Shown here piece after piece: positions 11,063-35,026 of a DNA stretch of 39,468 nucleotides. Positions within the stretch are counted from its first letter, which is position 1, and each line of letters opens with the position of its first letter. The notes below the pieces were generated by a model. That model saw only the letters and a program-made list of their open reading frames with translations, ran no database searches and was not told the DNA's origin. The translations under genes were made by a program, and so were the position numbers. Source of the stretch: Planctomycetota bacterium (GTDB lineage: Bacteria > Planctomycetota > SBBH01 > JACQRN01); NCBI GenBank assembly GCA_016206515.1, contig JACQRN010000211.1:1-39468 (forward strand), written 5' to 3'.

Positions 11063-11076
11063 CCCGTCGGACTCTC

Positions 11077-11562: not shown

Positions 11563-12696
11563 TCAACGGACCTGCGTGGTGAGATCCGCCAGGGGGACGA
11601 AGATCGCCATCGCGACGAACCCGACCACCAGCGCCATGACCGCGATCATCAGGGGCTCGATGAGGCGCGTGGCGGTCTTGAGGATCAGCTCGACCTGTCG
11701 GTCGTAGAAGACGCTCACCTTCATCAGCATCTCGTCCAGCTTGCCGGTCTCCTCGCCGACCGTGATCATCTGGGAGACGAGGGGGGGGATGAAGCGGGCG
11801 GCGCGGACCGACTCCCCAAGCGATTGCCCCCCCTCGACGGAGCGCCGGACCGCCTCGATCTCGGAGGAGAGCAGATCGTTCCCGACGACGTCGCGCGCCA
11901 TCTCCAGCGTGGTCAGGAGCGGCACCCCTCCCGCCTGCAGCACCGACATCGTGTGCGCGAAGCGCGCCATGGAGATCTGCTGGGCGACCGGGCCGATCCC
12001 CGGCAGCGAGAGCCAGAGCCGGTCGATGAGGCGGTGGCCGCCCGGCGTCCGGTGCCACACGACCCCGGCGGCGGCCGTGCCGAGGACGACGGGAAGGATC
12101 CAGATCCAGTTCCCCTGCAGGAACGCACCCGAAAACATCAACCCGCGCGTGATCGCCGGGAGCTCGGCGCCGAGATCCGTGAAGACATCCATCAGCTTCG
12201 GCAGGGTGTAGACGAGCAGGAAGGCCGTCGCCCCGAGCGCGGAAAGGACGAGGAAGGCCGGGTAGGCCAGCGCGCCCCGCAGCTGTCCGCGCAGCTCGTA
12301 GCGGCGCTCGACGAACAGCGCGAGCTTCGAGCACATCACGTCGAGCGCCCCGCCCGTCTCCCCCGCCTGGATCAGGCTCGTGTAGAGGCGGTCGAAGACC
12401 CGCGGGTAGCGCGACATCGCGGAGGAGAGCGACGCCCCCCCCTCCACCTCCAGGCACACGGCTCGCAGCACGGAGGCCATCCGGACCGAGCGCGTCTGGG
12501 AAGCGCAGACCTCGATACACCGCAGCACGGGGACCCCGGCGTTCACGAGCGTCGAGAGCTGCCAGCTCATCGCCGCGACATCCCGCAGATCCACCCGCAC
12601 CCCCGGCAGCGGCGCTCGCGGCGCGGGCGTCCCGGAGCCCCCGGCCTGGGCGGGGCGCGCCCCCTGCGCCGGGGAATCCGGCCGCGCGGGGGTCAC
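11563..12696 (-). CDS. GspF/PilC-type inner-membrane platform protein
   Basis: GTG at 12696 in a GTGA overlap with the ATPase stop. Two GspF-type repeats (LSTLVNAGVPVLRCIEV...LIQAGETGG and MSVLQAGGVPLLTTLEM...MITVGEETGKLDEML) with three hydrophobic segments. Confidence 0.85.
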   Translation of the reverse strand: MTPARPDSPAQGARPAQAGGSGTPAPRAPLPGVRVDLRDVAAMSWQLSTLVNAGVPVLRCIEVCASQTRSVRMASVLRAVCLEVEGGASLSSAMSRYPRVFDRLYTSLIQAGETGGALDVMCSKLALFVERRYELRGQLRGALAYPAFLVLSALGATAFLLVYTLPKLMDVFTDLGAELPAITRGLMFSGAFLQGNWIWILPVVLGTAAAGVVWHRTPGGHRLIDRLWLSLPGIGPVAQQISMARFAHTMSVLQAGGVPLLTTLEMARDVVGNDLLSSEIEAVRRSVEGGQSLGESVRAARFIPPLVSQMITVGEETGKLDEMLMKVSVFYDRQVELILKTATRLIEPLMIAVMALVVGFVAMAIFVPLADLTTQVR

Positions 12697-15983: not shown

Positions 15984-15990
15984 CGCCCCA

Positions 15991-16392
15991 CTACCTCCAG
16001 GATACCCGCGTGACGCCCCCCCCCACGCCCACCGTGACCACGACCGTACGCGAGGCATTCCCCCACGTCCCGGTCGAGGCGATCTCGACGTTCCCGGAGA
16101 CGTCCGCGAGGCTCGTCGTGTACGTCCCCGTGACGCCGTCGGCGGTGGCGAAACTCTTCCCCGAGAACCCCGTCCTCCAGGAGGCGTTGCCGATCAGCTC
16201 CCGGATCGCGTCCTCCGCGCCCGCCTCGGCGCAGTAGAGCGCCATCGCCCCTCGCCACTCGTTGTCGACAATCTTGACGTGCCGCCGGGCGTTCTGGAGG
16301 AACGTCACGCAGATCGAGAACAGGATCACCATCGTCCCGAGCGCCAGGACGAACACCGCCCCGCGGGAGCCCTCCCTCCCTTTCACGCTCAT
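15991..16392 (-). CDS. PilX/GspK-like minor pseudopilin
   Basis: 133 aa from ATG 16392, in an ATGA overlap with the upstream stop. Non-canonical N-terminal hydrophobic helix GAVFVLALGTMVILFSICVTFL, followed by ALYCAEAGAEDAIRELI as in PilX_N-type proteins. Only the last third of the 539-aa ORF looks coding. Confidence 0.65.
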   Translation of the reverse strand: MSVKGREGSRGAVFVLALGTMVILFSICVTFLQNARRHVKIVDNEWRGAMALYCAEAGAEDAIRELIGNASWRTGFSGKSFATADGVTGTYTTSLADVSGNVEIASTGTWGNASRTVVVTVGVGGGVTRVSWR

Positions 16393-18134
16393 CGCAACCG
16401 GACCGCCGTAGTCCCCGACACGCTGCGCGTCCCGTCGGAGACCGTCAGGCTCACCTGGACCACTTCGGAGGCGATGGTCACGTCGTCCCAGACCCCCAGC
16501 GCGCCGTCCGTGACCGTCTGCCAGGAGACGGTTCCGTCGTCGAACGTGCCACCGGCATGGCTGTGGATCTGCGCGTACCCGACCCCCGAATCGAGGTAGA
16601 CGAGCACCCCGGCGGTGCCGAGCCGCATCTTCACCTTGTACGCGGTTCCGGCGGTCCACGCCGCCAGCGAGTCGGTGGCCTGCTGGGAGATCCCCCCCAG
16701 GTTGTAGAAAAAGCGGACGGTGTTGTCGCTGCGGAACTCGACCGCGTAGCCGGTGTCCGACGCATCCCAGGTGCCGTACTGCAGCGCGTAGGCGGTCCCC
16801 GCCGCGCCCCCCCCCCCGGCGCCGACGTTCGGGAACGAGGTCCGCGCCGTGTTCGAGAAACGGACGTCGTCGAGCATGCCGTCGAGGTACGCGGCGCCCT
16901 GGAGGCTCCCCAGGGTGAGCGACTCCCCGTTCGTCCAGTCTCCCATTCGCGCCGCCGAGGCCTCCTGCGTCCCGTTGACGTACAACCGCATCGTCGTCCC
17001 GTCGTACGTCGCTGCCACGTGGGTCCATGTCCCGGCCGACACCTGCGTCGATCCCAGCGCCGTCGAACCGTTCCCGGCCCCCGTGTCCACGCGGAACTGG
17101 AACTTCCGGCTGCTCTCCAGCGTCAGTTCGAACCCGTCGTCCGACCCCGACCTCTTCCCGGCGATCCCCTGCACGCTCCCCGACCCCACCGTGTCGAACT
17201 TCACCCACGCCTCGATCGTGAAGCTCGCGGGATCGAGCACCGCATCGTCCGATATCTGGAGGTGGTCGTTCGTCCCATCGAACGACAGGCCGTTGCCGAA
17301 CTTCCCCGCCGTCCACTCGGTGCCCAGCATGTTCTGCAGCGGGCCGTCGCGGTTGTTCGCGCTCGCGTCGTCCGCGGACGTCCCTCCCGTCTCGTCCAGG
17401 CGCAGCAGCATCACCGTGTTCGCATCGACGGTCAGCGCGGTGTCGGAGGTCCCGGCGCCGCCGGGGGTGTAGGTGGCCTCGACGACCAGGCCGGACCGGC
17501 GGAAGGTCCCGGCCGAGCGGATCCCGTTCGCCTCGGAACTCCCGTTGCCGGTCACGCGCATCGTGGAGAGCGACTCGACAACGTTCGACCCCGAATCGGT
17601 CTTCGTCCACTTCGCGGTGTCGATCGCGTCGTCGTTGAAGTCGTCGGTCTGCGACTCGTACGTGGCGCGGAACGCCGTGACCCCCTGCGCAAGATCCTGC
17701 GCGGTCCCGTACCCGCCCCCCGTGTCGGTCGAGCGCTGCAGCGTCGAGCCGGAAATCGCGTACTTCACCTTCTCCGTCCCGGAGCCGGTGTCCAGGAGGT
17801 ACGTCGTGGTCAGTTCCAGCAGGGTGGTGTTCGCCGCGTTCACGGCGGTCCCGTAGCGCCCCTCCCGCTCGATCCTCGACAGCGCGACCCGCAGATTCTG
17901 CAGAAGATCCCCCCTCCCGTTATGGTCGCGCCAGACGCGCACCCCCATCGCCAGGGCACCCGCCATGGACGTCGAGATCACCCCGACGATCGCCATGGCC
18001 ATCACCAGTTCGACGAGCGTCAGCCCCGGCGGACGCGGGCGCTTACAACCCGTGACAGAACGTCGCAGAAGATCCCGCGAAGCGCGAGGCGTCCAGCGTC
18101 CAGCGGGGTTCTGCAACAGCCTCTCACTCGGCAT
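16389..18134 (-). CDS. large minor pseudopilin with a LamG/concanavalin-like domain (GspJ position)
   Basis: Prepilin motif G|LTLVELVMAMAIVGVIS. The LamG_3-like core is LSFDGTNDHLQISDDAVLDPASFTIEAWVKFD...GTWTHVAATYDGTTMRLYVNG...LDGMLDDVRFSN. The start is uncertain: ATG 18134 gives a 37-aa leader and an 11-nt overlap with the upstream gene. Confidence 0.8.
   Translation of the reverse strand: MPSERLLQNPAGRWTPRASRDLLRRSVTGCKRPRPPGLTLVELVMAMAIVGVISTSMAGALAMGVRVWRDHNGRGDLLQNLRVALSRIEREGRYGTAVNAANTTLLELTTTYLLDTGSGTEKVKYAISGSTLQRSTDTGGGYGTAQDLAQGVTAFRATYESQTDDFNDDAIDTAKWTKTDSGSNVVESLSTMRVTGNGSSEANGIRSAGTFRRSGLVVEATYTPGGAGTSDTALTVDANTVMLLRLDETGGTSADDASANNRDGPLQNMLGTEWTAGKFGNGLSFDGTNDHLQISDDAVLDPASFTIEAWVKFDTVGSGSVQGIAGKRSGSDDGFELTLESSRKFQFRVDTGAGNGSTALGSTQVSAGTWTHVAATYDGTTMRLYVNGTQEASAARMGDWTNGESLTLGSLQGAAYLDGMLDDVRFSNTARTSFPNVGAGGGGAAGTAYALQYGTWDASDTGYAVEFRSDNTVRFFYNLGGISQQATDSLAAWTAGTAYKVKMRLGTAGVLVYLDSGVGYAQIHSHAGGTFDDGTVSWQTVTDGALGVWDDVTIASEVVQVSLTVSDGTRSVSGTTAVRLR
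16807..16817 (-). repeat. G11 homopolymer (C11 on + strand) inside the LamG pseudopilin coding sequence
   Basis: Encodes GAGGGGAAG (GCC GGG GGG GGG GGC). The length is cross-checked against the opposite-strand ORF translation (RRAPPPGAD). Confidence 0.8.
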
Positions 18135-18510
18135 TGGCGCGGTAGGCGACCAGGCTGCGCGAACTGGGGCGGTTCGACAGGCCGGTCCAGGTGATGGTCG
18201 CGACGATCTTCTTGAGATTCGCCTGCGGGGTCGTGACGACCGTCTCGACCTGGAAGGAGGCGTCCTCGGGTACCGCCGCGATCGTGACGGACGCGACCTC
18301 CGCATACGGCCGCGCGATCTGCGCCTCCACCTCCCGCCGCAGGTACCCGTGCGCCAAGGTGCGCTGCTTGGCGATCCGCTCCGACAGGATGCCGACCTGG
18401 AGGATTTCGGTCGCCGAGACGATCGAGATCGACAGCAACATCAGGGCGAAGAGAACCTCCACCAGGGTAAACCCCTCCGCAAGCCGCCCGACGGGCCGCG
18501 CCGTCGCCAC
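18124..18510 (-). CDS. GspI/PilV-like minor pseudopilin
   Basis: GTG at 18510 gives the leader VATARPVGRLAEG followed by G|FTLVEVLFALMLLSISIV (Glu +5). 128 aa, with small beta-rich C-terminal part. Confidence 0.75.
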   Translation of the reverse strand: MATARPVGRLAEGFTLVEVLFALMLLSISIVSATEILQVGILSERIAKQRTLAHGYLRREVEAQIARPYAEVASVTIAAVPEDASFQVETVVTTPQANLKKIVATITWTGLSNRPSSRSLVAYRANAE

Positions 18511-22161: not shown

Positions 22162-22255
22162 GAGCCGGACGACGAGCGCCGTTTCCTCCGGATAGGAAGG
22201 AACCGCAGGGCGCCGGGGAGCGTCTCACGAGACGGGAATGGAAAGGGGGAGGACG

Positions 22256-23491
22256 ATGGGGACGAAATCAAGCGCGGTCGTGGCGGCGGGGCTTCTGGCC
22301 CTGACGGGGTCGACGGGGATCCTGGCGGACGAGGTGCTCTCTCCCCAGGTGCAGGCACAAGCACCGCGGATCGACCCGAAACCCTTGAGCGCGAACGTGC
22401 AGCGCGGCCTGGCGTATCTGGCGGAGCGGCAGCTTCCAGGCGGCGGCTGGGGCCAGGGGGACGAGTCCGCGAATATCCGTAGCGGCGAAGGGAACGGAGC
22501 CAATGTCGCCGACACCTGCATGGCCGCGCTCGCGCTCCTGCGCGCCGGAAGCATCCCTACGGCGGGTGCGCATGCGCAGAACCTGTGCCGGGCCGTCTCC
22601 TATGTCTGCTCGGAGGTCGAGGCGGCGGACCGGGACTCCCTGTTCGTGACCTCCGTGCGCGGCACGCGGGTCCAGGGGAAGATCGGGAACGCGATCGACA
22701 CGTTCCTCGCCGCGAACCTCCTGGCGGAGGTCCGCAACCGGATGGCGGATGACGCCGCCAACGCGCGCGTGACCGCGGCGCTCGACAAGGTGCTTGACAA
22801 GATCGAGCGGAACCAGCGCGCCGACGGAACCTGGGAGGGCGAGGGGTGGGCACCGGTCCTGTCCCAGGGGATGGCCGCCCGCGCGGTCAATCGCGCAGCC
22901 CAGTCGGGGGCCGAAGTCCCCGCGTCGGTCCGCGCACGCACGGAGGCGAACGCGCGGGGCGCCTTCGACGAGGCATCCGGACGTTTTGCCGGCGGGCCTG
23001 GGGACGCGGGGGTCGGCTTGTACGGCTCCTCTGCGTCGCTGGGCGCGATGCAAGAGTCCGAGAATACGAACCGCAAGCGGGAGGACGACCTGCGCGCACG
23101 CCTCGCGGAGGCGCCGAGCGCCGAACAAGCCGAGATCCAGGGAGAGCTCGGACGCATCGAGGGGAATCGGCGGGAACTCCGACAGGCGCGTGCCTCCATG
23201 GTCGAGCAGCTCAAGGACGAGAGGTTTGTACAGGGGTTCGGCTCGAACGGCGGAGAGGAGTTCCTCTCCTACGTGCAGATCGGCGAGTCGCTCCTGGCGG
23301 CGGGGGGCGAGGAGTGGCGGGCGTGGGACGCCTCGATGACCGCCAACCTTGAGCGCGTCCAGAATGAGGACGGCTCCTGGACCGGCCACCACTGCATCAC
23401 GGGGCGTACGTTCTGCACCTCTACGGCGCTGCTGGTTCTGATGGTCGACCGGACGACCGAGCCCTTGAGCGACGCGGTGCGCAGAAGGTAG
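22256..23491 (+). CDS. secreted prenyltransferase/squalene-oxidase (terpene-cyclase-like alpha/alpha toroid) repeat protein
   Basis: ATG 22256 follows GGGGGAGG. Signal peptide is SSAVVAAGLLALTGSTGILA. Repeats of the Q..DG.W type: ERQLPGGGWGQ, RNQRADGTWEGEGW, VQNEDGSWTGHH. A charged helical insert lies at NRKREDDLRARLAEAPSAEQAEIQGELGRIEGNRRELRQ. Confidence 0.75.
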   Translation: MGTKSSAVVAAGLLALTGSTGILADEVLSPQVQAQAPRIDPKPLSANVQRGLAYLAERQLPGGGWGQGDESANIRSGEGNGANVADTCMAALALLRAGSIPTAGAHAQNLCRAVSYVCSEVEAADRDSLFVTSVRGTRVQGKIGNAIDTFLAANLLAEVRNRMADDAANARVTAALDKVLDKIERNQRADGTWEGEGWAPVLSQGMAARAVNRAAQSGAEVPASVRARTEANARGAFDEASGRFAGGPGDAGVGLYGSSASLGAMQESENTNRKREDDLRARLAEAPSAEQAEIQGELGRIEGNRRELRQARASMVEQLKDERFVQGFGSNGGEEFLSYVQIGESLLAAGGEEWRAWDASMTANLERVQNEDGSWTGHHCITGRTFCTSTALLVLMVDRTTEPLSDAVRRR

Positions 23492-23501
23492 ACCACACCT
23501 T

Positions 23502-24728
23502 GTGACGTTTCGCGCAAGCCGGGCCATCGCGGTCGCCGCCCTCCTCGCCGCGATCGGACCCGGTTGCGCGCGCAGGCCTCCAGAACGCGACGATCTGTCC
23601 GAGAGGATCGACGCGGCGCTCGCCCACGCGCAGGGGTTCCTCCTGTCGCAGCAGTCCCCCGACGGCGCGTGGCGCTCGCGTACGTACGGCGCGATGCGCG
23701 ACGGGCCGTCCTTGACGCCGGCAGCATGCAAGTTCCTCGCGTTCCACCCCTCCCTCGACGAGTCGGGGGCCGCTGCGCTCGCGCGCGGACGCGACTACAT
23801 CGCCAGGATGCTCCGCCCTGACGGATCGAGCGAGCCCGATGGCGGCGCCCTGCTGTACCCGGTCTACACCGCCGCGCTCTCGGCGATCGTCCTCGGACAA
23901 TCCGCGGAGCCGGAGCACGCTCGTGCCTCGCGCTCCTGGCTCACCCTCCTGCGCGAGCACAGGTACGGCCCGCATCTGGGGTGGAGGCGGGCGGATGCGA
24001 CCTACGGCGGATGGGGATACGCGCCCCGTCCGTTCCCCAAGGACGCCGCCCGGGAAGGATTCGAGGGAGAGGCGAACCTCTCCTCGACACTGTTCGCCGT
24101 CGGCGCCCTGCGGATGTCGGGCCTGGGGGCGGACGATCCGGTCTGTCGCGACGCCCTTGCCTTCGCCTGCCGCTGCCAGAATTTCGCGGAGGCCCCCGCG
24201 CTCGGCGACCCCGCATTCGACGACGGCGGCTTCTTCTTCTCGCCGGCCGATACCCTGCGGAACAAGACGGGCGCCGTCCGGGATCGCGACGGCCAGGAGC
24301 GTTTCCCCTCGTACGGGAGCATGACCGCCGACGGGATCCGGCTCCTCCTGCGGTGCGGACTCCCGCCGGACCACCCGCGCGTCCGCGCGGCCTCGTCCTG
24401 GCTCCAGGCGCATTTCGACCCGGCGCACGTCCCGGGCCGTTTCGCCCCAGACCGGGAGTTCCTGCGCGACGCGACCTACTACTACTACGCGTGGTCGTGC
24501 GCGCACGCGTTTGCGACCCTCAACCTGCGGACATGCGACGTCGCCGACCGCCGCGTCGACTGGGCCGCCGCGCTCGCCTCCGAACTCCTCTCCCGCCAAT
24601 GCGAGGACGGTTCCTGGGCGAGCCCGCTCGGCGATTCCAAGGAGGACGACCCCCTCGTGGCGACGCCTCTGGCCGCCGGGGCGCTGGCGCTGTGCGCTCG
24701 GCAGATGGATACGTCCGCCGCACGGTAG
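23502..24728 (+). CDS. secreted (possibly lipidated) prenyltransferase/terpene-cyclase-repeat protein, paralogous type
   Basis: GTG start 10 nt after the upstream stop. Signal peptide ends in Cys (AALLAAIGPGC). Repeats SQQSPDGAWRS, MLRPDGSSEP and RQCEDGSWASP. Aromatic-rich toroid motifs (YGGWGY, YYYYAWS). Confidence 0.75.
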   Translation: MTFRASRAIAVAALLAAIGPGCARRPPERDDLSERIDAALAHAQGFLLSQQSPDGAWRSRTYGAMRDGPSLTPAACKFLAFHPSLDESGAAALARGRDYIARMLRPDGSSEPDGGALLYPVYTAALSAIVLGQSAEPEHARASRSWLTLLREHRYGPHLGWRRADATYGGWGYAPRPFPKDAAREGFEGEANLSSTLFAVGALRMSGLGADDPVCRDALAFACRCQNFAEAPALGDPAFDDGGFFFSPADTLRNKTGAVRDRDGQERFPSYGSMTADGIRLLLRCGLPPDHPRVRAASSWLQAHFDPAHVPGRFAPDREFLRDATYYYYAWSCAHAFATLNLRTCDVADRRVDWAAALASELLSRQCEDGSWASPLGDSKEDDPLVATPLAAGALALCARQMDTSAAR

Positions 24729-24756: not shown

Positions 24757-24777
24757 GGCCGGGCATAAAGCCCGGCC
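24757..24777 (-). terminator. stem-loop abutting the stop of the DMT gene
   Basis: GGCCGGGC-ataaa-GCCCGGCC: an 8-bp stem lying back-to-back with the 24727 hairpin in the convergent gap. Confidence 0.4.
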
Positions 24778-25124
24778 TACCCGGGGGTAGCCATCCCCCT
24801 GAACATGAAGAAGGCCCCCGCCGCCAGGCACAACCCCGCCCAAAGGAAGTCGAGCCGCACCGGCTGCTTCATATAGACGACCGCGAAGGCGGCGAAGACG
24901 CACATCGTTACGACCTCCTGGATCACCTTCAGCTGGGCGAGGGAGAAGTGCCGGTACCCGATCCGATTGGCGGGGACCTGGAGGCAATACTCAAGGAACG
25001 CCACGCCCCACGATGCGAGGATCGCGACGAGGACCGGCTTCCCCTTGAGGTCCTTCAGGTGGCCGTACCACGCGTACGTCATGAACAGGTTCGAGCCGAC
25101 CAGCAGAAGGACCGTCGTCGCCAT
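24777..25124 (-). CDS. small DMT-family membrane protein (DUF486-like)
   Basis: 115 aa from ATG 25124, with four hydrophobic segments. MTYAWYGHLK and LEYCLQVPANRIGY match my memory of DUF486/DMT small proteins. Confidence 0.7.
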   Translation of the reverse strand: MATTVLLLVGSNLFMTYAWYGHLKDLKGKPVLVAILASWGVAFLEYCLQVPANRIGYRHFSLAQLKVIQEVVTMCVFAAFAVVYMKQPVRLDFLWAGLCLAAGAFFMFRGMATPG

Positions 25125-25281
25125 GCCACACCTCCCGGGCGCGGAAGCGCCCTCACAGCAGGAATATCCGCCGCCGCACGGCGCGATTACAATCCCCCCG
25201 TGCGTGGGGAGATCGGACCGATCGGCGGCCGGGCGTTCCTGCATGGGTTCACCTCGTCGATCGGATTTTTCACGGGGAGAG

Positions 25282-25318
25282 GTTGACCGCCATAATGAAT
25301 TAGCGTACGCTAGTCAAC
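25282..25318 (+). promoter_or_regulatory. low-GC palindromic element abutting the start codon of the giant ORF (candidate operator/promoter)
   Basis: GTTGAC-cgccataatgaat-TAGCGTACGCTA-GTCAAC-ATG. It contains a perfect 12-nt palindrome at 25301-25312 flanked by inverted GTTGAC/GTCAAC, a CATAAT -10-like hexamer at 25291-25296 and no SD before ATG 25319. Confidence 0.4.
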
Positions 25319-28300
25319 ATGCCAGACGCCCCGCCACCCCGCGAAACGCTCCTCCGCGGGATCGTCCGACTCGCCGCGCAGGGGGTGCTGCCGCAGGGCT
25401 CGGCGCTCCAGGCGCTGCGCCACCTCTTGGAGGCGCCCGGGGAGACGTCCCCCTCGCTCGGGGCGATCGCGCTCGCCATGGCCGGCGAGGACCACCCCGC
25501 CGTGCGCGCGCTGCTCAAGTCCGTCCTCACCCTGCGCCGTGACACCGCCCGGTCCGTGCACGCCTCGCGCTCCGCACGTCTGGCGATCCCCCCCGAGCAC
25601 GCGCGGGACCTGGAGGGTCTCCCCTTCGACGCGCCCCTGCGATGGAAGGGGGGGGAGGAGACCGACGAGGAAACGTTCCTGTCGGGTACGGAGGCGCGTT
25701 TCCGCGCGTTGGAGCCTGCCCTGCGCGCGTCACTGCTCGACGCGGTCCTCCTATGGCCTACCGCGAGGGCCGCCAAGACAATCGGACGGCTCTCGACGAC
25801 GTTCACCCCCGAGGAGCGCGAGCGAGCCATCCTGATCCTGACATTGCGGTTCGGCGGGCCGGCAGGGGCCGAGTGGGAGACCTGGCGCGCATGGCTCGGG
25901 TCGGAGGACCTGCGATGGGAGGACGAACGACGCAGAACCCACGAGGCGGCCGAGCGGCCCGCCGTCCCGCCCGATCCCGCCCTCCCCGCCGCGCATGCAG
26001 CGCCGCCGGAACTGCCGCGCGCGGTCCCCCTGCCACCCCCTCCGAGCGATATCCCCGGGCCGACCCCTTGGACTCGCCGAGAGCGCGAGGCGCCGCCGGA
26101 GCCAGAGCCTCTCCCGAGGGGGATCCCGCTCTGGCGCGACCACCTGCAACCGCTCTTCGTGGACAACTGGTACCTCGCCGTCGGGATCGCGATGGTCCTG
26201 GCCGGGAGCGCGCTCCTGGCGTACTTCACCTGGGACCGGCACTGGCTGGTGCGGTACGGGCTCCTCCCCGCGATGCTCGGGGGGATCGCCGCGCTCCTGG
26301 GGAGGCTCGGGGCGTGGCTGCAGCGACGCGCCGAGACGTTCGAGGGGGCCGCGGCCGCCCTGCGCGGCGCGGCGGTCGCCCTCCTGCCGATCGCGCTTGC
26401 CCCCCTCGCCTTCCTCGCCGACGACCCCATGGTCGCGCACAAGACGGCGGTCGTCCCCGCCCTCTCGCTCGCCGGCCTTGCCCCTGCCGCCTGGGGGCTG
26501 CGGCGCTGGTGCGGCGGGGTCCATGCCTCCCTCGCCGGGCCCTTCGCCCTCTCGCTTCTGGCGATCAACGCGCTCGCGCTCGCGCGCCCGGTGGGCCAGG
26601 CGCTTCTGGGCCTGGACCGCGCGCACCTCCCCGGGATGCTGGCGCTCTGCGCCTACGCCGGCTTCGCCGCCGCCTCCTTCGCCGCGTGGCGCCTCGCGGG
26701 CAGGACCCTCACGCCGGACCTCGCCCGGCGCCGCCCGGTCGGCGGATTCGTGGGAGCCTCCCTGGCGATCACATCCCTCGCGGTCTTCGCGTGGAGCCAT
26801 GCCGTCCCGCGCGTGCGGCCCGATCCGCAGACGTACGCCTGCCTGGCGATCCTCGCGGGGGGGCTCGTCCTCTGGCTCGAAGCGCGCCTGCAGGGGGTTC
26901 TCCAACTTCCCGCACGGGCCGGCCCCGAGGCGTTCTGCGCCTATGCGCTCCTCCTCCTCGGGATCCTCATGGGGATCCCCTCGGACACGGTCCGGATCGC
27001 GGCGCTCGCGCTCGCCGGCGCCGTCTGGCTCGCGCAGGGGGTCCGCCGCGAGCACGCCCTGCACGACTGGATCGGCCTGACGCTGCTGTCCCTGGCGGGG
27101 GTCTCGGTCGGCCTATTGGAGGGGTTCCCGCGCGAGAGGATCGCGCTCCTGGGCCCCGCCCTCGCCCTGCTTCTATCGGCCGCAGCGCGCCTGTCGGGCG
27201 GCCGCCTGGGGCCGACGTTCGCCTCCTCCTGCCGCGGGCTCCAGGGGATGGTCCTGGTCCTCTCCACGGCGGTCGCCGCGCTCGCACAGTGGCATTTCCG
27301 CAGCGCCCCCCCCTTCACCGCCGCGGTCCTCCTGGCCGACGCGGCGCTCCTCCTGTGGCTCGCGCACCGGGAGGGGACCGTCAACCCCGCCCTCGCCGCG
27401 GCGCTCGCCTGCGCGTTGGCGCTCCCGTACCTCGGATGCGCCGACGTGCTCAGCCGCACCTGGACGGGGAACACGATGGCGTTTGGCCTCGGAACCCTCT
27501 CGTTCGCATGGCTGGCGCTCGCGAGACTCCTGCCGGGCGGCCCGGTCCGGACCACCCGTTCGACCGTCGTCTGCCTGTACGGCGCGCTCGCGGCCACCGC
27601 CTTCCTCCTGCGGATCGGGTTCGAGGGGGATGCCCGGGCGTTCCCGGACTGGACAGGAAGGCTCCTCGACTGGTGCGGCCCGCTCCTGGCGACCGCCGCT
27701 CTCGTCTTCGCCACCTACCACTCGCGGTCGCACCTTCCCACCGCGATCGGCGTCCTCCTCTCGGCGGTCCTCTTCCCGCAGATGAAGGCGGGGCTCCAGG
27801 AGGCGTTCCCAGCCCTGGGGTTCGGCAGCGGGCTCGGGAGCGCCGCGTCCGCCGTCCTGATCGCCGCCCTCCTGTTCCGCCTGCGATCGCTCCCTGCCCT
27901 GCAGAACCTCTCCGGCGGCGACCCCTTCCTGGGGGGGAACCCCTTCCCGATGCGACGGACGGACCCGACCCTTTTCACCTCCCCGCTGATCTGCGCAGCC
28001 CTGTTCCTCGCCGCAAAGGTCGAGACATGGAATCTCGCCCGCAACCTCCCCGATCCGGGGATGAAGACGTGCGTCGCGCTCTGCCTCTCCGGGGCCGCTT
28101 GGACCCTTCTGGCCCTCTTCCGCCATCCGGAGGAGCGCTGGAAGCGGGCGGTCCATCTCGGCTGGATTTGGCTCGCGGCGGGGATCGCCCTGGCCCACCG
28201 GCACCTGTCGGATACACCGAGGTGGGACCTCCCGACCCTGGCGACCGTCCTGTCCCTGCTCGCGATCGTCCTCGCCTGCCGCGCCTGCCGCGCCTGCCGC

Positions 28301-31300
28301 GGGCCCCTGGCCTGGCTGCGCACGGCGCTGGGCGATCCGTACGCGGCCGTCCTGCGCACGGGGAGCCAGATCCTCACGCTGGCGTGCATCGCCGAGCTTC
28401 TCGTGGGACATCCCCCCGCGCGGATCTGGGCGACCGTAGGGACCGCCGCGCTTCTGCACGCTGCGTACGCCCTCGGCGATCGCCGCTCCTCCCTCCACGG
28501 CCTGCACCTGTTCCTGCTCGGTTGGGTGTCGCTCCTGCACGGATGCGTCCCGGGGAGCGGGCCCCTGATCGGGCGCCTCACCCTTGCGAACCTGATGGAA
28601 CCCACCGTCTGGCTCCTCCTGGGCGTCCAGGGTGCGGCCCTTGCCGCGGAGGTCGCGCCCCGTGCCGCGGTACGCCTGCGCTCCCTCCTGGTCCCCGCCC
28701 GCGCCTCCGCGGTGGCGATCTTGATCGGACTCGCCGCCGCTGCGGGAGCGGACGCCCTTCTCGGAAGGGAAATCGCCCCGCTGTACAGGCACTTGCTCGC
28801 CATCGTCGTCCTGCTCGTGGCGCGTCGCGAGCGGCTGGGGCCCGCTGCGCTCGCCGCGCTCGGGCTCGGCTATCTGCTCGTTCACGAGGCGCACCTCGAT
28901 GCTCTCGCGGGTCTGGATTTTCGCCTGCAACTGCTGACGGAGCCGTGGCGCCTCGGAGCTCTGGGCGCCGTGGCGGGTGGGACGGCGGCGCTCTTCGCGA
29001 GACTCGGAGGAAACCGCATCCTGTCCGCTCCGGCGGGGGAAACGCTCCCGGGCCTGGGCGCGGAATCCTGGCGCATGCGTCCCTGGATGCTGGCGCCTGC
29101 GATCGTCCTGGCGCTCCTGGCATCCGGCCGCCACGCGATCGAATGGAACTTCCGGAACGACCCTGGCCAACTCGGCGCGACGTACCTCTCCGCCCTGGCC
29201 CTGGCCGCCGCGGCCTGCGGGGGGGGCGGGGTGCGCGCCCTGGCTCTCTCCGGGGCGCTCGTCGTCCTGGGGAACATCCACGCCGTGCGCGTCCTGGCGG
29301 GGCCGATGTTGCGCGGGCGGGGGCTGTCCGAGACGCACCTCGTCTGCCTGGGGCTCTGGACCGGTCTGGCGCTCGCGTGGGCGCTGCGGCGGGCCCTCCG
29401 CTCGCGCGCCGATGTCGTCAACGCGCTCGAACGCACCGCGCTGGCCCTGGCCGGGACCCTGCTCGCCCTGCTGGCGGCCAACTACCTCGTCCGGCCCGAT
29501 CTGCAGACGATCACCCCGCTCCGGTTCGCGGTCTCCGGCGCGCTGGCCCTCGCATCGGCCCTTCCGTTCCGCCGCGCGTCGCGCAGTGACGCGCCGCACG
29601 CGCCCCTGTGCGAGGGGGTCCACCTGTTCGGGATCGCGATGGCGATCTGGTGCGCCGCGCTCCTGGTGGAGCCCCTGCGCTCCCCCGCGCGCGCCCTATG
29701 GGCGCTCTCCGTGCCTGCCTTCTATTTCGCGATCCGCGCCGAAATCGGCTCATGCACCGGCCACCTCAGCGCCCGTGCCTATCGCGACGGCGCCGCGGTG
29801 GTGGGGTTCCTCCTGCTGGGGCTGTACGCCTCCCGTGGCGCGCTGCGCATGGCGTTCTTCCCGCACGAGCCGATCCGGACGGACCATTACCACGACAACG
29901 CCCCGGCGGTGCTGCTGCTGGGGCTGCTCCTGCTGCGCCTGCGGGGGCTCGGCGGGACCGGGTGGCTCTCCTTCTACGGCGGGATGGCGCTCGTGGCCGG
30001 GACCTACTTCACCGTCACGGCGCTCCCGGGATGGAGTCCCTTCGAGGATCCGACCCCCGGGGCGTGGATCGCGGTGGCGCTCGCGCTCGGATGGAGCGCC
30101 GCCTGGACGCGCGCCTCGCCGATCCGCAAGGGCCTGTCGGCTCTCACCCAGACAACGGAACAGGAGTGGGACCGCTTGCGCCAGGCGTGGGAACTTTTCG
30201 CCTCGGTCGGTGCCCACGCCGCCTGCGCATGGGCCTGTTCCCAGGCAGCCGACACGCGCCAGATCGCGCCGCTCCTGGCGGGCGCGGCGGCGACGCTGCT
30301 GCCGGGCGCGCTGCGGACGAGGGCCGGCGCCGGCGGGCTCCTGGCCGTGGCCCTGATCGAAATCCTCGCGGCGCTCCACGCGGACTTCGCCGTTCCGAGC
30401 TACCTGGGCCGGGCGGACATCGTCTGGGCGATTCTAGGCCTGTTCGCCTCCGTGGTCGCCGCCGCTCATGCGTGCGCGGCGGTGCGCGGCCCTGGGGCGA
30501 CGGACGACAAGACACCTGCGGGGGAACGCCTGCGCTGGGCGGTGGGGCTTCTCTCCCTCCTCTCCTTCGCCCATGTCCTCTACCACCACCCCGGATCGAG
30601 CACGGGCCTGTCGGCCTTCTGCTCCCTCGCCATGCTCCTCGCCGCCTCGCCCAGCGTCGGCGCCCAGGCGAACGCGCTCGGGCTTCCGGCCGTGCCGGTC
30701 CTGGCCGCCCCGGTCTGGATCGCCTACTTCAGCCAGGCGGGCTCGCCGGAAGGCCCGCTTCGCTCAGGACCCCTCCCCTGGGGAAGGGGCCCCTGGCACG
30801 GCCTCGAGACCTGGCCGCTTCTGATCCTGGCGGCCTCGATCCTGGCGACCGGGGCTCTCGCCGCGCGCGCGCGCTTGGCAGGATGGATCCTTCCCGGCAT
30901 CACCCGGCGCGCACAGGTCCTGCTCGACGACACCCTCGATGCGATGCGGGTGCGCGGGGAATCGGTCCACCACGCGACCCTCTGGGTCGCCACGGCCCTT
31001 GCCGCCGCGGTCCAGGTCCACCACTACGGGGCCGCCTTCGAGCACCGCGCCCTGACGCTCCTCGCCCTGCTCTGGTGCGCCCTGGGTCTGGCATGGATGC
31101 GGCAGGGGAAGTTGCGGGACACCTGGCTCCCGTACACGCTGGCGCAGGGATGCCTGTTCGCACTCCTGGCCGCGCTGCGCCGCCAATTGATGCTGACCAC
31201 CTCCTTCTGGACGCACGAGTACGACGTTTGGGCGTCCCTGGCGGCGTCCCTCCTCCTGGCCGGCCTCAAGCCGCAGATCGACCGGCAGGGCGTCGCGGCG

Positions 31301-31987
31301 CGCCGCCCCGCCGGTCTGGCGCTCCTCGTGCTCCCGGCCGTGGCCCTGGCCTGGACGTACCTGCACGGCCTGGGGACCGACCTCGCGCTCGTGGTCCTGG
31401 GACTCCACTCCATGACCTTCTCGTTCCTGGGCCGCTCCGACCGTCACTCCCCCTACAACATCGTGGCGCTGGCGGGCTTCACGGGGTTCGTGACGCTCGC
31501 GTTCTGGAGCAAGCTGGAGCTGCGCGTCGTGCAGGCGTACGTCATCCCCGTAGGCGTCGCGATCCTTCTCCTGCTGCGGGCGTTCGGGGACCGGATGGAG
31601 CCGGGAGCGCGCAACCGGATCCGCCTAGCGACCTTGCTCGCGATGCTCGGCAGCAGCGGCTACTACGCCCTGTTCGACGTTCGCCACCCCCTGCCGTTCC
31701 ATCTGACGTTCCTGGCCCTGGGGCTCCTGGCGATCGGGATGGGGGGACTCCTGCACGTGCGCCTGTACGCAGTGCTCGGGACGAGCGGAGTGCTCCTCGA
31801 CCTCGCCTCGCTCGTCTGGCGCGCCCTGGCGGGGCTCGACGCGCCCGCACGGATGACGGCGCTCGGATTCCTGATCCTCGCCACCGGGGCGGTCCTCGTC
31901 GGCGGCGCCGTCTACTACAAATCGCACCGCGAGGAGATCCTGCGGAGGCTGGGCATGATCCGCGCGCGGTTCTCCGCGTGGGAGTAG
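25319..31987 (+). CDS. giant polytopic membrane protein (2,222 aa), unknown function
   Basis: Uninterrupted ORF. A ~290-aa soluble N-terminus with a Pro-rich linker is followed by about 60 L/A/G-rich hydrophobic segments (by-eye count) with short R/H/W/P loops. Competing long ORFs in other frames are R/P/G-rich shadows. Confidence 0.75.
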   Translation: MPDAPPPRETLLRGIVRLAAQGVLPQGSALQALRHLLEAPGETSPSLGAIALAMAGEDHPAVRALLKSVLTLRRDTARSVHASRSARLAIPPEHARDLEGLPFDAPLRWKGGEETDEETFLSGTEARFRALEPALRASLLDAVLLWPTARAAKTIGRLSTTFTPEERERAILILTLRFGGPAGAEWETWRAWLGSEDLRWEDERRRTHEAAERPAVPPDPALPAAHAAPPELPRAVPLPPPPSDIPGPTPWTRREREAPPEPEPLPRGIPLWRDHLQPLFVDNWYLAVGIAMVLAGSALLAYFTWDRHWLVRYGLLPAMLGGIAALLGRLGAWLQRRAETFEGAAAALRGAAVALLPIALAPLAFLADDPMVAHKTAVVPALSLAGLAPAAWGLRRWCGGVHASLAGPFALSLLAINALALARPVGQALLGLDRAHLPGMLALCAYAGFAAASFAAWRLAGRTLTPDLARRRPVGGFVGASLAITSLAVFAWSHAVPRVRPDPQTYACLAILAGGLVLWLEARLQGVLQLPARAGPEAFCAYALLLLGILMGIPSDTVRIAALALAGAVWLAQGVRREHALHDWIGLTLLSLAGVSVGLLEGFPRERIALLGPALALLLSAAARLSGGRLGPTFASSCRGLQGMVLVLSTAVAALAQWHFRSAPPFTAAVLLADAALLLWLAHREGTVNPALAAALACALALPYLGCADVLSRTWTGNTMAFGLGTLSFAWLALARLLPGGPVRTTRSTVVCLYGALAATAFLLRIGFEGDARAFPDWTGRLLDWCGPLLATAALVFATYHSRSHLPTAIGVLLSAVLFPQMKAGLQEAFPALGFGSGLGSAASAVLIAALLFRLRSLPALQNLSGGDPFLGGNPFPMRRTDPTLFTSPLICAALFLAAKVETWNLARNLPDPGMKTCVALCLSGAAWTLLALFRHPEERWKRAVHLGWIWLAAGIALAHRHLSDTPRWDLPTLATVLSLLAIVLACRACRACRGPLAWLRTALGDPYAAVLRTGSQILTLACIAELLVGHPPARIWATVGTAALLHAAYALGDRRSSLHGLHLFLLGWVSLLHGCVPGSGPLIGRLTLANLMEPTVWLLLGVQGAALAAEVAPRAAVRLRSLLVPARASAVAILIGLAAAAGADALLGREIAPLYRHLLAIVVLLVARRERLGPAALAALGLGYLLVHEAHLDALAGLDFRLQLLTEPWRLGALGAVAGGTAALFARLGGNRILSAPAGETLPGLGAESWRMRPWMLAPAIVLALLASGRHAIEWNFRNDPGQLGATYLSALALAAAACGGGGVRALALSGALVVLGNIHAVRVLAGPMLRGRGLSETHLVCLGLWTGLALAWALRRALRSRADVVNALERTALALAGTLLALLAANYLVRPDLQTITPLRFAVSGALALASALPFRRASRSDAPHAPLCEGVHLFGIAMAIWCAALLVEPLRSPARALWALSVPAFYFAIRAEIGSCTGHLSARAYRDGAAVVGFLLLGLYASRGALRMAFFPHEPIRTDHYHDNAPAVLLLGLLLLRLRGLGGTGWLSFYGGMALVAGTYFTVTALPGWSPFEDPTPGAWIAVALALGWSAAWTRASPIRKGLSALTQTTEQEWDRLRQAWELFASVGAHAACAWACSQAADTRQIAPLLAGAAATLLPGALRTRAGAGGLLAVALIEILAALHADFAVPSYLGRADIVWAILGLFASVVAAAHACAAVRGPGATDDKTPAGERLRWAVGLLSLLSFAHVLYHHPGSSTGLSAFCSLAMLLAASPSVGAQANALGLPAVPVLAAPVWIAYFSQAGSPEGPLRSGPLPWGRGPWHGLETWPLLILAASILATGALAARARLAGWILPGITRRAQVLLDDTLDAMRVRGESVHHATLWVATALAAAVQVHHYGAAFEHRALTLLALLWCALGLAWMRQGKLRDTWLPYTLAQGCLFALLAALRRQLMLTTSFWTHEYDVWASLAASLLLAGLKPQIDRQGVAARRPAGLALLVLPAVALAWTYLHGLGTDLALVVLGLHSMTFSFLGRSDRHSPYNIVALAGFTGFVTLAFWSKLELRVVQAYVIPVGVAILLLLRAFGDRMEPGARNRIRLATLLAMLGSSGYYALFDVRHPLPFHLTFLALGLLAIGMGGLLHVRLYAVLGTSGVLLDLASLVWRALAGLDAPARMTALGFLILATGAVLVGGAVYYKSHREEILRRLGMIRARFSAWE
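28274..28300 (+). repeat. 9-nt x3 in-frame tandem repeat (GCCTGCCGC) inside the giant ORF
   Basis: Encodes ACR-ACR-ACR in LACRACRACRGPL. Confidence 0.8.
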
Positions 31988-32007
31988 GGGGGCGGTATGC
32001 TGTCCGC

Positions 32008-32487
32008 GTGACGCCCCCCCCCTCCCTCCAGGAAACCTACTTCGCCGACGGCACCTGCTTCGGCTGCGGCCCGGCGAACGCGAAGGGGTTGCGCATACGC
32101 TCCCTCCCCGTCGGCGACACGCCCGACGGCGAGGTCGTCGCCGATTGGACTCCGAGCAAGCACCACGAGGCGTTCGAGGGGATGCTCAACGGCGGGATCG
32201 CGGGCGCCCTCCTCGACTGCCACAGCAACTGGACCGCCGCGTGGCACCTGATGAAGCGCGACCGGCTCCCCCGCCCCCCCTGTACGGTCACGTCCGACTT
32301 CCACGTCCGCCTGACCGCGCCGACGCCCCTGGGCGGCCCCCTGCGGATCTCCGCGCGCGCCGTCTCCTCCGAACGCCCCCGCGTCACCGTGGAGGCGACG
32401 ATCAGCGCGAGCGGCAAGGTCACCGCCACCTGCACCGGGACGTTCGTCGCAGTCAAACCCGGGCACCCGGCGTACGGCCGGTGGTAG
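32008..32487 (+). CDS. PaaI-type hotdog-fold thioesterase
   Basis: GTG 32008 lies 20 nt after the giant ORF stop. Motifs CFGCGPANAKGLRI and HEAFEGMLNGGIAGALLDCHSNW, with a typical ~155-aa length. Only the tail of the 959-aa ORF is non-shadow-like. Confidence 0.75.
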   Translation: MTPPPSLQETYFADGTCFGCGPANAKGLRIRSLPVGDTPDGEVVADWTPSKHHEAFEGMLNGGIAGALLDCHSNWTAAWHLMKRDRLPRPPCTVTSDFHVRLTAPTPLGGPLRISARAVSSERPRVTVEATISASGKVTATCTGTFVAVKPGHPAYGRW

Positions 32488-33039
32488 TTATCTCTTCCTT
32501 CGATAGCGGCTGGTCAGGAACGTGTGCCACTCGCCGTCCACCTCGATCATCAAGGTGAGCGTCTTCTGGTCCTCCCCGACAACCTCGATGATGTCCCTGC
32601 ACTTCGCCCGCCCGCCTGGCACGTCGGGGTTGGGGACCTCCGTTTCGAGCGTCAGGATTCTTCCCGCGGCGTCGAGCGCCCCTTCGTAGACCACAAGATT
32701 GTTGGCCATGGAGCAGATCCACGTTCCCACATACTTCCCTCGCTCCGGGTCATACCCCAGCGTCAGGATGCCGGTGGATGGCCCGCCCGGGGATGACCCG
32801 TGCATCTCGAACATCGCCCAGCTTCCGATCCTGCGGCCGCTCTCGGTCCCCGTGAGTCTCTGCGGAGACTGGGACGGGGCCGTGACGACATCCATTTCGA
32901 ACTCCCATTCCCCCACGAGCTGTTCGAGCCACGCATGCTCTCCCTGTGCTCCGGGCGCCTGGGGGGCTTCCGGGTCCGACCTAGCCGCGAAAACCGCAAG
33001 GAGCATCGCAAGACACCCTGCCACCATGAACTTCCTCAT
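32488..33039 (-). CDS. secreted DUF1579-like protein
   Basis: Signal peptide is [31 protein letters not shown]...GKYVGTW...TLE...DQKTL resembles DUF1579 as I remember it. ATGA overlap with the ispG stop. Confidence 0.65.
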
Positions 33040-34205
33040 CCCTTCCTCCCTTTCCGCATTGCCTCACGCGCGGCAGGCTTCGCGAAGATCAATCCGTCCA
33101 ACTCTACACGCAGCTTCTCTAGAACCTCATCGTACCGGAACGCCCCGACCGTCTCCTTGCCGCGCTTGAGGTTCACGTGGGTCGGGCCGCACCAGAGACC
33201 CAGGTCGGCGTCGTCGGTCTCGCCGGGGCCGTTCACGCGGCACCCCATGACGGCGATCGTTAGGGCGTGCTCGCGCGCGTAGACGCTCATGCGCTGGACC
33301 TCCTGCGCGAGCTCCACGAACTTCTCGTTCTCGACGCGCGAGCAGGAGGGGCACGAGATGATGTTGAGGTGCTTGTTCTCGAACTTCGGGACCGACCGGA
33401 ACCTGCCTGAGACGATGTCGTCGAGGATCCGCTGGCCCTCGTGCACCTCTTCCGGTTTGCGGTCGTTCGGAAGCGTGAGCGACACCCGGATCGTGTCGCC
33501 GATCCCGCGCGTCAGGAGCTGCTCGAAGGCGATCCGGGTCTTGACCACGCCGTCGGGAGGGAGCCCCGCCTCGGTCACGCCCAGATGGAGCGGGACGTCG
33601 GGACGGCGCTCGGCGAACCGCACGTTCGCCTCGACCACCTTCGCGGGGTCGGAGTCCTTGATCGAGACGACGAACCGCTGGAACCCGGCCTCCTCGACCA
33701 TCCCGACGTGCTCGAGCGCGGACTGCACGGTCGCCCCCACCGAGTCGCCGGGGAAGCGCTCCGCCGCCGCCGGGTCGACCGAGCCGCAGTTGACGCCGAT
33801 CCGCAGGGCGCAGCCGTGCTTGCGCGCCTGGTCGACGATGAAGCGGACCTTCTCGCGGACCGGCTTCTCCTTCTCGTGGTGGTACAGGTGCCCGGGGTTG
33901 TACCGGATCTTGTCGACGTGCGGAGCGACGTCCTCCGCGAGCCGGTAGTTCTCCTGGAGGTCGACGACGAGGTTCACATCCCCGCGCGTGCGGCGCCGGA
34001 TCCCGGCGAGCCCCTCCACGTCGGCTCGCGAGTCGACCGCCACGCGCACGAGCCCCGCGCCGGCGGAGGCCAGGGCGCGCGCCTGCGCGCAGGTCGCCGC
34101 AACGTCCTGCGTCTTCGTGGCGCACATGCTCTGGACGACGACGGGGTGCCCCCCCCCGATCGTCACGGAGCCCGCTTTCACCTCCCGCGTGGGATTGCGC
34201 CCCAT
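33036..34205 (-). CDS. ispG: 4-hydroxy-3-methylbut-2-en-1-yl diphosphate synthase (MEP pathway)
   Basis: Motifs [35 protein letters not shown], plus the Fe-S ligand region ISCPSCSR...GCRVNGPGE. Start taken at ATG 34205. Confidence 0.92.
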
Positions 34206-34264
34206 CGCGGGCAGTATACTGCCGCCTCCGCGCGCGTGACTTTCCGCCCGGAAGAGGAGGACCG

Positions 34265-35026
34265 ATGAAGAAAATCGCATTCGTGCTGCTGGCAACCGCG
34301 TCCCTGGCGTTCCCCTCCCTCCTCTCCGCGCTTGAGATCGGCGCCGAGGCGCGGCTGTGGGAACAGTCCCTGACGGCGGACATTGAGGTGGACAAGGCGA
34401 CGATCGAGGGGACCGAGATCGACCTCGAGGACACGCTCGACATCGACGACAAGGAGACGGTCCCGGAGTACCGCGCCTGGATCGAGATCGGGAACTCCCG
34501 CCTGACCGGCTCGTACTCGAAGTTCGCCAACGACGGGACCAAGACGCTCACCCAGTCGATCGTCTTCGACGGCACGACCTACGCCGCGAGCACCACGGTC
34601 ACCTCCGACATGGACATCGAGCTGGCGGACCTGACGTTCGAGTCCCCCCTGCCGTTCCTCTCGCTGGGGACCACGGCCTCGATCAACTGGCTCGCCGGCG
34701 TGAAGTACCTCGGCTTCGAGGGATCGATCACGGCGTCCGGCGTCGAGACCGCCAACAAGGTCGGGGTCCCGATCCCGCAGATCGGGGCGGGCGTGCGCGC
34801 CGACCTCCTGATGATCGACGTCTTCGCGACCGCCAAGGGGATCGGCTACGACACCGGGGACGTCCGCGGGAAGATCATCGACGCCGAGGCGGGCGCCGGG
34901 TTCGAGCTGGGGGTCTTCCGGGTCAGCGCGGGGTACCGGATCTTCGACATCGACGTCGATAGCGACGACGCGGCGCTCGAGTTCCAGTACGGCGGGCCGT
35001 TTGTCGGGGCGGGATTCTCTTTGTAG
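34265..35026 (+). CDS. putative outer-membrane beta-barrel protein
   Basis: Signal peptide is [22 protein letters not shown]. Alternating hydrophobic beta-strand pattern, with C-terminal strand FVGAGFSL. Confidence 0.65.

Follow-up and report, generated by a model that had tools for sequence, protein, structure and literature searches.

What does a bacterium build when it devotes a single gene of 2,222 codons to a chain that is mostly membrane-spanning helix? This question is raised by a giant membrane protein gene on contig JACQRN010000211.1 of a Planctomycetota bacterium (assembly GCA_016206515.1), all 39,468 nucleotides of which were analyzed and are referred to here as the window. An original prediction, made from the letters of the window, had described the product as a membrane protein with about 60 hydrophobic segments and no recognizable domain. 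In the account given here, the gene, its family and its membrane topology are joined to an inferred mechanism, in which the helices would form one continuous array in the membrane. Taken as a single statement, this account is put forward tentatively and with less than even confidence.

The giant gene and its relatives

The open reading frame (ORF) at this locus is near certain to be a genuine gene. GC content at its first, second and third codon positions is 0.75, 0.55 and 0.90, and the third-position value (GC3) stays at 0.85–0.93 in 11/11 blocks of 600 nucleotides (nt). Three rival ORFs overlap it (25642–29589 and 29608–32487 on the plus strand, 27173–29623 on the minus strand); since their GC3 is 0.57–0.74 and the GC content of their first positions (GC1) 0.86–0.90, they are out-of-frame shadows in a genome of 70% GC, as the original prediction had argued from composition. 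The encoded protein is rich in alanine (18.3%), leucine (18.3%) and glycine (9.2%). An identical (100%) database entry exists under the name hypothetical protein HY608_07575, from a Planctomycetes bacterium metagenome-assembled genome (MAG).

The strongest argument against a chance ORF is that the frame is open for ~7 kb in ~55 genomes of five phyla. Because the orthologous frames run open for ~2,250–2,450 codons in ~55 loci having both gene ends on the contig, a frameshift fusion is also excluded. An artefact, either a frame that is open by chance in a high-GC genome or several ordinary genes fused through misassembly or frameshifts, could appeal to the long spurious ORFs typical of high-GC DNA and to the several ORFs of 400–1,300 codons that overlap the giant one, but the frame-specific GC3 along the whole ORF, the conserved uninterrupted frame, the end-to-end alignment of homologues with ~75 invariant columns and the scattered end points of short database matches, which mark no fixed domain boundary, reduce it to a negligible chance, and the comparative data already refute it. 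The gene call made at the outset has held up on each point that could have overturned it: codon periodicity is strong, the orthologues are intact and show no split, and no characterized family is matched.

A first homologue search yielded 19 relatives of 1,889–2,895 amino acids (aa) with 32–45% identity, most of them covering 88–99% of the query. The named homologues and cluster members are all called 'hypothetical protein'. A scan of GTDB with one genome per species found 107 relatives, and 73 loci were fetched; by label, these belong to Planctomycetota (24), Verrucomicrobiota (19), Lentisphaerota (10), Elusimicrobiota (7) and Acidobacteriota (2), with 11 unclassified. The carriers include Kuenenia and Fuerstiella (Planctomycetota), Akkermansiaceae and Limisphaerales (Verrucomicrobiota), Victivallis (Lentisphaerota), Endomicrobium (Elusimicrobiota) and one member of the Vicinamibacteria (Acidobacteriota). 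In addition, a profile of the C-terminal half, built from the window protein and six homologues, was compared with 1.84 billion cluster representatives and matched 405 of them at E ≤ 1e-3 and 174 at E ≤ 1e-30. Full-length matches are mostly 2,224–2,482 aa long, and the shorter ones begin at scattered points of the profile, as expected of fragments from contig edges. A further word-indexed homologue search with the family alignment added no members among its 8,000 candidates, which were probably taken up by words rich in Ala, Leu and Pro; the same kind of search with an alignment of the N-terminal domain returned nothing, known family members included, and is therefore uninformative.

Within the family, the membrane part aligns nearly without gaps. 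The frequency of the top residue is 0.42–0.66 in most 100-aa blocks (lowest 0.38), and conservation is highest at aa 301–400 (0.65), aa 1501–1600 (0.65) and aa 2001–2200 (0.64–0.66). The nearest neighbour comes from the same phylum for 40/48 labelled sequences and identity between phyla is 36–41%, which points to a family that is old, mostly vertically inherited and patchy.

The family is characterized by a length of ~2,200–2,500 aa and by the motifs (L/V)A(Y/W)(F/Y)TWD(K/R), ESF(L/V/I)G(F/Y) and (F/W)W-x-x-EYD(V/I)W. With the majority of the 19 homologues, the window protein can be aligned over 88–99% of its length; it carries the first and third motifs exactly and has E-A-F-C-A-Y at the second, with E537 and F539 kept. 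It is trimmed and divergent: among the loci fetched, the closest relative is 41% identical, it is shorter than every full-length homologue listed, and it replaces four family-conserved polar residues (N359A, H1436L, H1590L, H1662P). Two longer proteins, P0152 (2,989 aa) and P0154 (2,651 aa), are distant members with 22–27% identity to the window protein and N-terminal regions of ~500 aa in which no Pfam domain was found; together they may represent a second subfamily. At one locus from a MAG labelled Akkermansia muciniphila (L062, 4001–8978), the match spans the gene and the longest ORF stops at 7945 (1,503 codons), which points to a pseudogene, a frameshift or a faulty assembly.

Protein anatomy and comparison with known proteins

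The protein consists of four parts, namely a cytoplasmic helical N-domain, a proline-rich linker, ~64 transmembrane (TM) helices and a short basic tail (Table 1). The first ~283 aa are non-hydrophobic, in line with the soluble N-terminus followed by a proline-rich stretch that had been read from the sequence originally. The N-domain shows top-residue frequencies of 0.29–0.41 and has no Pfam or PDB relative. In relatives it measures ~400–450 aa; two internal stretches, one of ~130 aa and one of ~60 aa, are present in eight aligned relatives and missing from the window protein. In a 9-sequence alignment, P264, P266, W272 and N283 of the linker are invariant.

Hydropathy averaged over a 20-sequence family alignment revealed 64 hydrophobic segments between aa 284 and aa 2201. 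The loops preceding odd-numbered segments are mostly K/R-rich and those preceding even-numbered segments K/R-poor. Because this alternation fits the positive-inside rule and the basic C-terminal tail agrees with it, an N-in/C-in topology with an even span count of about 64 TM helices in the inner membrane is near certain. The loops are short, with a median length of 9 aa; five only exceed 20 aa and the longest measures 31 aa; judged by these lengths, the membrane part contains no large extracytoplasmic domain. The first estimate of ~60 TM segments was thus right within a few, as both the hydropathy count and the helices of the structural models described below indicate, and the short loops without a long extracytoplasmic domain had also been recognized correctly. 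At the C-terminal end, K2201, R2215 and W2221 are conserved. A significant 100-degree periodicity of conservation (p < 0.05) was observed in 20/64 TM segments, with ~3 expected by chance; these helices appear to carry one conserved and one variable face, a signal that is unable to tell a ribbon from a bundle. To our knowledge, the TM count is among the highest for any single polypeptide, and size and TM count together are exceptional for bacteria.

Next, the protein was compared with known families and structures. Pfam-A gave no meaningful match to the window protein, and the scan was negative for 22 further members. The first 19 homologues contain no Pfam domain; a single match to Ycf66_N (PF07444; 23.4 bits, cut-off 22.3), found in 1/20 members and covering one TM hairpin (aa 477–530 of the window protein), was dismissed as a chance match. 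NCBIfam contained no match to the window protein, and a candidate role as an anti-phage defence system was set aside, with no PADLOC-DB family matching at E ≤ 0.01. Profiles of the whole family, the N-domain and the C-terminal half, searched against PDB sequences, returned chance matches only (E > 0.05), among them antibody heavy chains, OST48 and protocadherin. The matches to antibody heavy-chain variable domains fall on family profile positions 1032–1126, are weak (E 0.07–1) and were treated as chance. A block-wise self-comparison with hhalign, using 20 and then 56 sequences, detected no convincing internal repeat; one weak pair was seen between ~aa 1702–1783 and ~aa 1970–2043 (hhalign probability 59–69%). 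Literature searches, including one on novel membrane folds, found no paper on such a family within the library searched. Pfam, NCBIfam, PADLOC and PDB profile searches therefore agree with the early impression that no domain or catalytic signature can be recognized, and it is near certain that the family is without a detectable relative among curated families or solved structures. The sequences are already in databases as 'hypothetical protein'; we regard the family and its predicted architecture as a new kind.

The membrane part was modelled with AlphaFold2 in two halves, aa 276–1250 and aa 1240–2222, with 20 sequences each. Both models are almost wholly helical, with ~32 long helices per half, a mean predicted local distance difference test score (pLDDT) of 81.6 and 81.3 and a predicted TM-score (pTM) of 0.61 and 0.57. 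Foldseek searches against the PDB gave 308–612 weak matches per half; among the top 50 listed for each, those at E ≤ 1e-3 are soluble alpha-solenoids of the TPR/HEAT type only, for both halves (best E = 2.5e-5 and 3.1e-4, TM-scores 0.1–0.23). SKI3-containing SKI complexes are found at the top, followed at lower ranks by the Ctr9-containing Paf1 complex, separase, karyopherins and designed toroids. No membrane protein stands above chance in the top 50 of either half, the single one listed being at chance level. Against viral structures (BFVD), generic all-helical matches of the tape-measure type were obtained and nothing else.

With soluble alpha-solenoids such as SKI3/TTC37, Ctr9, separase and designed alpha/alpha toroids, the giant protein may share a local geometry in which a long run of consecutive antiparallel helices lies mainly on sequence neighbours, and its tolerance of an inserted helix block, described below, is likewise solenoid-like. 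Those proteins are water-soluble, whereas the helices of the giant protein are hydrophobic and span the membrane; it has no TPR or HEAT match in Pfam, no detectable repeats, and TM-scores to these solenoids in the low range given above. The resemblance is an architectural analogy and not homology.

A possible membrane-embedded helical array

Longer members of the family provide a clue to how the helices might be arranged. In P0007 (2,895 aa) and P0015, two members of the Acidobacteriota type, an insertion of 510–530 aa is a tandem copy of the preceding ~400 aa. The insertion of P0007 (aa 1753–2281) is 36% identical to aa 1352–1751 of the same protein (E 6e-27) and matches aa 1199–1588 of the window protein (E 2e-30); that of P0015 lies at aa 1301–1811. 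Locus L056, with an ORF of 2,908 codons, also shows this insertion. It is an old tandem duplication; the inserted copy holds ~12–16 helices and raises the helix count to ~80. A scan of the longer variants (2,651–2,989 aa) for domains found none added. Separately, P0070 (2,730 aa) has ~350 extra residues between the window-equivalent aa 988 and 1311. The segment aa 1199–1588 marks a module that the array can gain without losing the remainder. Open-ended arrays tolerate an inserted ~400 aa, which closed bundles as a rule do not. A protein into whose middle a dozen extra helices can be placed is thus more probably of the open-ended kind.

Since all Foldseek matches at E ≤ 1e-3 are soluble solenoids and a tandem copy of ~400 aa is tolerated, we propose an extended up-down array, that is, a membrane-embedded solenoid, as the predicted fold, and consider the chances of this being right or wrong evenly balanced. 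The 64 helices would run up and down as a single continuous array that extends within the cytoplasmic membrane, parallel to its plane, and that by itself would give structure to the bilayer or sense its state. Its very long lipid-exposed perimeter would organize, stiffen, bend or report on the membrane, and the cytoplasmic N-domain on its flexible linker would serve as a handle to the cell interior. The protein would be no solute transporter, ion-coupled machine or classical enzyme. At ~1 nm per helix, a rough estimate gives either a two-row ribbon of ~30 nm or a compact disc of ~9 nm. A function as stand-alone bilayer scaffold or sensor is a possibility that we hold with some doubt. With greater reserve still, one may imagine a new architectural class, a ribbon or arc of tens of nanometres in the inner membrane that corrals, bends or senses the bilayer; on the same doubtful footing, it could correspond in prokaryotes, in principle but without common descent, to Piezo blades or to scaffolds that shape membranes.

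The distribution of conserved polar residues bears on what such an array would not be. In the membrane part, 49 polar positions are conserved at ≥ 80%, and five of them (N359, N417, N1319, H1590 and H1687) lie in TM cores, defined as six or more residues inside a hydrophobic segment; the remaining positions cap helix ends. None of the 49 is a D, E, K or R in a TM core. Because no conserved charged residue lies inside the TM cores, the alignment argues against an ion-coupled transporter, and likewise against a charge chain like that of complex I. The membrane arm of complex I and related Mrp antiporters (NuoL/M/N; Proton_antipo_M) resembles the giant protein as a long linear membrane assembly of several tens of helices, and the total helix count of the complex I arm is of the same order. 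That arm is composed of several subunits with 14 TM helices each and contains a chain of conserved buried Lys, Glu and His, whereas the giant protein is without conserved buried charge, has no Proton_antipo_M match in Pfam, and finds no such structure among the Foldseek matches listed.

Several observations weigh against an array acting as scaffold. The likeness to solenoids consists of Foldseek 3Di matches with TM-scores of 0.1–0.23, obtained with models from 20 sequences and a pTM of 0.57–0.61. A solenoid that grows by duplication would be expected to retain vestigial repeats, and the profile–profile self-comparison found none above 69% probability. Mean-field direct coupling analysis (149 sequences, reduced alphabet, effective number of sequences 116) placed adjacent-helix pairs at 10% of the top pairs against 3% expected, an enrichment that is weak and noise-dominated, with a few hub columns dominating the top couplings. 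The family is found in a small fraction of genomes even within carrier phyla, which excludes a role as core determinant of cell architecture. Finally, ~1,900 membrane residues are nearly gap-free and H1340, H1525, H1687, H1752 and D1969 nearly invariant; since a passive scaffold needs less constraint than this, a specific activity beyond scaffolding is possible.

A rival reading is that of a giant channel, mechanosensor or transporter, in which a conserved terminal module, possibly oligomerized, would form the pathway and the helix array would be a tension- or curvature-sensing arm, analogous to a Piezo blade. Piezo is a eukaryotic mechanosensitive channel with 38 TM helices per chain, whose blades are repeats of 4-helix bundles combined with a defined C-terminal pore module and a cap domain; we know of no Piezo in bacteria. 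The giant protein recalls it in the very large chain, the high TM count, the long array of helices with short loops and the lack of an enzymatic domain, so that Piezo might be a functional analogue as a membrane-shape or tension element. The conservation peaks at aa 301–400, 1501–1600 and 2001–2200 are as expected of functional core modules, and the gene stands alone, without partners. However, nothing comparable to the pore module, the cap or the 4-helix-bundle repeats can be recognized in the giant protein, no Piezo match occurs in Pfam for the 23 members scanned, and none of them matches an ion-channel or transporter family. Neither Piezo nor any other membrane structure appears in the Foldseek top 50 of either half, save the one at chance level, and conserved charge is missing from every TM core. 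We therefore judge a channel, sensor or transporter of this kind to be unlikely.

An alternative with a somewhat smaller chance is a membrane-embedded enzyme or a metal- or cofactor-binding protein, with a site at the periplasmic face made of near-invariant His, Asp and Glu residues of the C-terminal half; its substrates might be lipids or glycans of the envelope, or it might take part in redox chemistry. The residues that suggest it are H1340, H1525 (YH), H1687 (LH-x-D), H1752 (H-x-x-Y-H-H-P) and E1967/D1969 (E-Y-D-V-W), which are conserved at 81–99% and map to periplasm-proximal helix ends or loops. The unusually tight sequence conservation would suit an enzyme, as would the thioesterase-like gene 20 nt downstream in the window and the PlsC-type acyltransferases that are among the most frequent neighbours elsewhere. 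However, these residues are spread over ~20 helices (TM36 to TM56) and would be far apart if the array is extended. Not all conserved polar residues can be essential, since the window protein has other residues in place of N359 and of the family-conserved His 1436, 1590 and 1662. No His-box, HExxH, GT-C or other catalytic family was matched, and an acyltransferase occurs in 4/118 neighbours only.

The neighbourhood of the gene was also considered for a possible partner. In the window, the gene is divergent from the upstream DMT_6 gene, and the 74 nt between them have a GC content of 0.51, compared with 0.73 in the giant ORF, which agrees with the low-GC island noted originally. Two overlapping sigma-70-like sites were found near the start, against 0.0 expected in shuffles. 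The original prediction had further placed a hotdog thioesterase downstream and suggested a two-gene unit. An ORF does start 20 nt after the stop; its match to 4HBT (PF03061) scores 18.9 bits, below the cut-off of 20.6, and three other thioesterase models match weakly, so that it is a likely hotdog thioesterase by a sub-threshold match. This ORF also has a CxxC motif near its N-terminus. The idea that the giant protein works together with this thioesterase, for example in acyl-lipid handling, can draw on the short gap, the shared strand, the lack of a terminator-like site between the two genes and the weak 4HBT match, but the comparative context largely speaks against it and leaves it very improbable. 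Four contexts read one by one all differ (an RDD protein, Ser/Thr kinases, a GH76 glycosidase and others) and none has a thioesterase beside the gene. When the flanking ORFs of the 73 loci and the window were compared all-against-all, no cluster occurred in more than five loci, the carriers in those cases being close relatives, and the flanks of the window belong to none of the 20 most widespread clusters. The 118 immediate neighbours contain 186 Pfam families, none of them in more than four neighbours, and thioesterase families are absent from the 25 most frequent. Since no neighbour is conserved at the level of sequence clusters or Pfam families, the giant gene behaves as a stand-alone unit, and the adjacency of a thioesterase-like gene looks specific to the window genome. 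As to individual neighbours, the giant gene of an Elusimicrobia genome shares 19 nt at its 3' end with a Ser/Thr kinase gene (L002, 13260–15536), that of another genome shares 4 nt at its 5' end with a gene of the RDD family (L001, 9396–10004), and protein kinases occur in 2/118 immediate neighbours only.

An oversized member of DUF2339, or of another family of polytopic membrane proteins of the DUF type, is more improbable still: the original prediction had noted a faintly similar entry into the membrane, and in both cases many TM helices come after a soluble N-terminal region and the function is unannotated, but this layout is generic, DUF2339 proteins are, according to the original prediction, several-fold smaller, PF10101 matched neither the window protein at E ≤ 1 nor, at E ≤ 0.01, any of 23 members (the 20 of the family set and three divergent long ones), NCBIfam was negative, and the sole Pfam match is the Ycf66_N hairpin.

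If the predicted architecture is true, the helical array in the membrane would represent a new membrane-protein build, open-ended and in-plane as opposed to a compact bundle, and a conserved bacterial family without functional annotation would be defined. A single chain of 64 helices is also a demanding substrate for insertion by SecYEG/YidC and for membrane quality control, and would be a useful test case for both. Strong constraint is seen in environmental and host-associated lineages, including MAGs of anammox Kuenenia, Akkermansiaceae, Victivallis and Endomicrobium, and therefore suggests a selectable membrane function that current annotation has missed. The family is without a curated model in the scanned copies of Pfam-A and NCBIfam and without a structure, and its predicted fold appears unlike that of any solved membrane protein; it deserves a Pfam/DUF entry and a structure.

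Other genes of the window

The giant gene is surrounded by ordinary chromosomal genes, including a type II secretion (T2SS) or type IV pilus (T4P)-like cluster, an acetyl-CoA-synthetase-like enzyme, IspG, MltA and BipA. Coordinates of the features are collected in Table 1.

Table 1 Features of the giant gene, its product and the surrounding window
Feature	Position (nt)	Strand	Remark
Giant membrane protein gene	25319–31987	+	ATG start, 2,222 codons and stop, complete
N-terminal cytoplasmic domain, aa 1–212	25319–25954	+	No hydrophobic segment, no signal peptide; weakly conserved
Pro-rich linker, aa 213–283	25955–26167	+	Ends in conserved W-x-x-H...(E/D)N motif leading to TM1
Membrane array, aa 284–2201, ~64 TM helices	26168–31921	+	Predicted N-in/C-in
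Duplicable segment, aa 1199–1588, roughly TM32–44	28913–30082	+	In tandem twice in Acidobacteriota-type members
Basic cytoplasmic C-terminal tail, aa 2202–2222	31922–31984	+	Ends in nearly invariant W2221-E
Sigma-70-like promoter candidate, TTTTCA / 18 nt / CATAAT	25267–25296	+	Consensus match; 22 nt upstream of ATG
159-aa ORF, GTG start	32008–32487	+	Starts 20 nt after the stop of the giant gene
DMT_6/DUF486 small membrane protein	24777–25244	-	Divergent, upstream of the giant gene
TPR protein	8167–9081	-	T2SS/T4P-like cluster
Secretin	9078–10853	-	T2SS/T4P-like cluster
GspG-like pseudopilin	11077–11541	-	T2SS/T4P-like cluster
GspF	11563–13011	-	T2SS/T4P-like cluster
GspE-type ATPase	12693–16058	-	T2SS/T4P-like cluster; called 1,121 aa, long N-terminal extension
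Prepilin-type N-methyl + Laminin_G_3 protein	16389–18305	-	T2SS/T4P-like cluster
Two tandem ~410-aa genes	22238–23491, 23502–24728	+	Weak squalene-hopene-cyclase-repeat matches, 28.1 and 20.5 bits
DUF1579 protein	32488–33039	-	Overlaps IspG by 4 nt
IspG	33036–34295	-	Near the tandem cyclase-like genes
253-aa protein	34265–35026	+	Signal-peptide-like N-terminus, no Pfam match

The secretion or pilus-like cluster extends over 6099–18305 on the minus strand. Because the listed ORF of its GspE-type ATPase overlaps GspF by ~320 nt, the true start of this gene is probably further downstream. The two tandem genes upstream of the giant gene probably encode alpha/alpha-toroid proteins resembling prenyltransferases or terpenoid cyclases, judging from their weak repeat matches. 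The 253-aa protein could be an outer-membrane protein.

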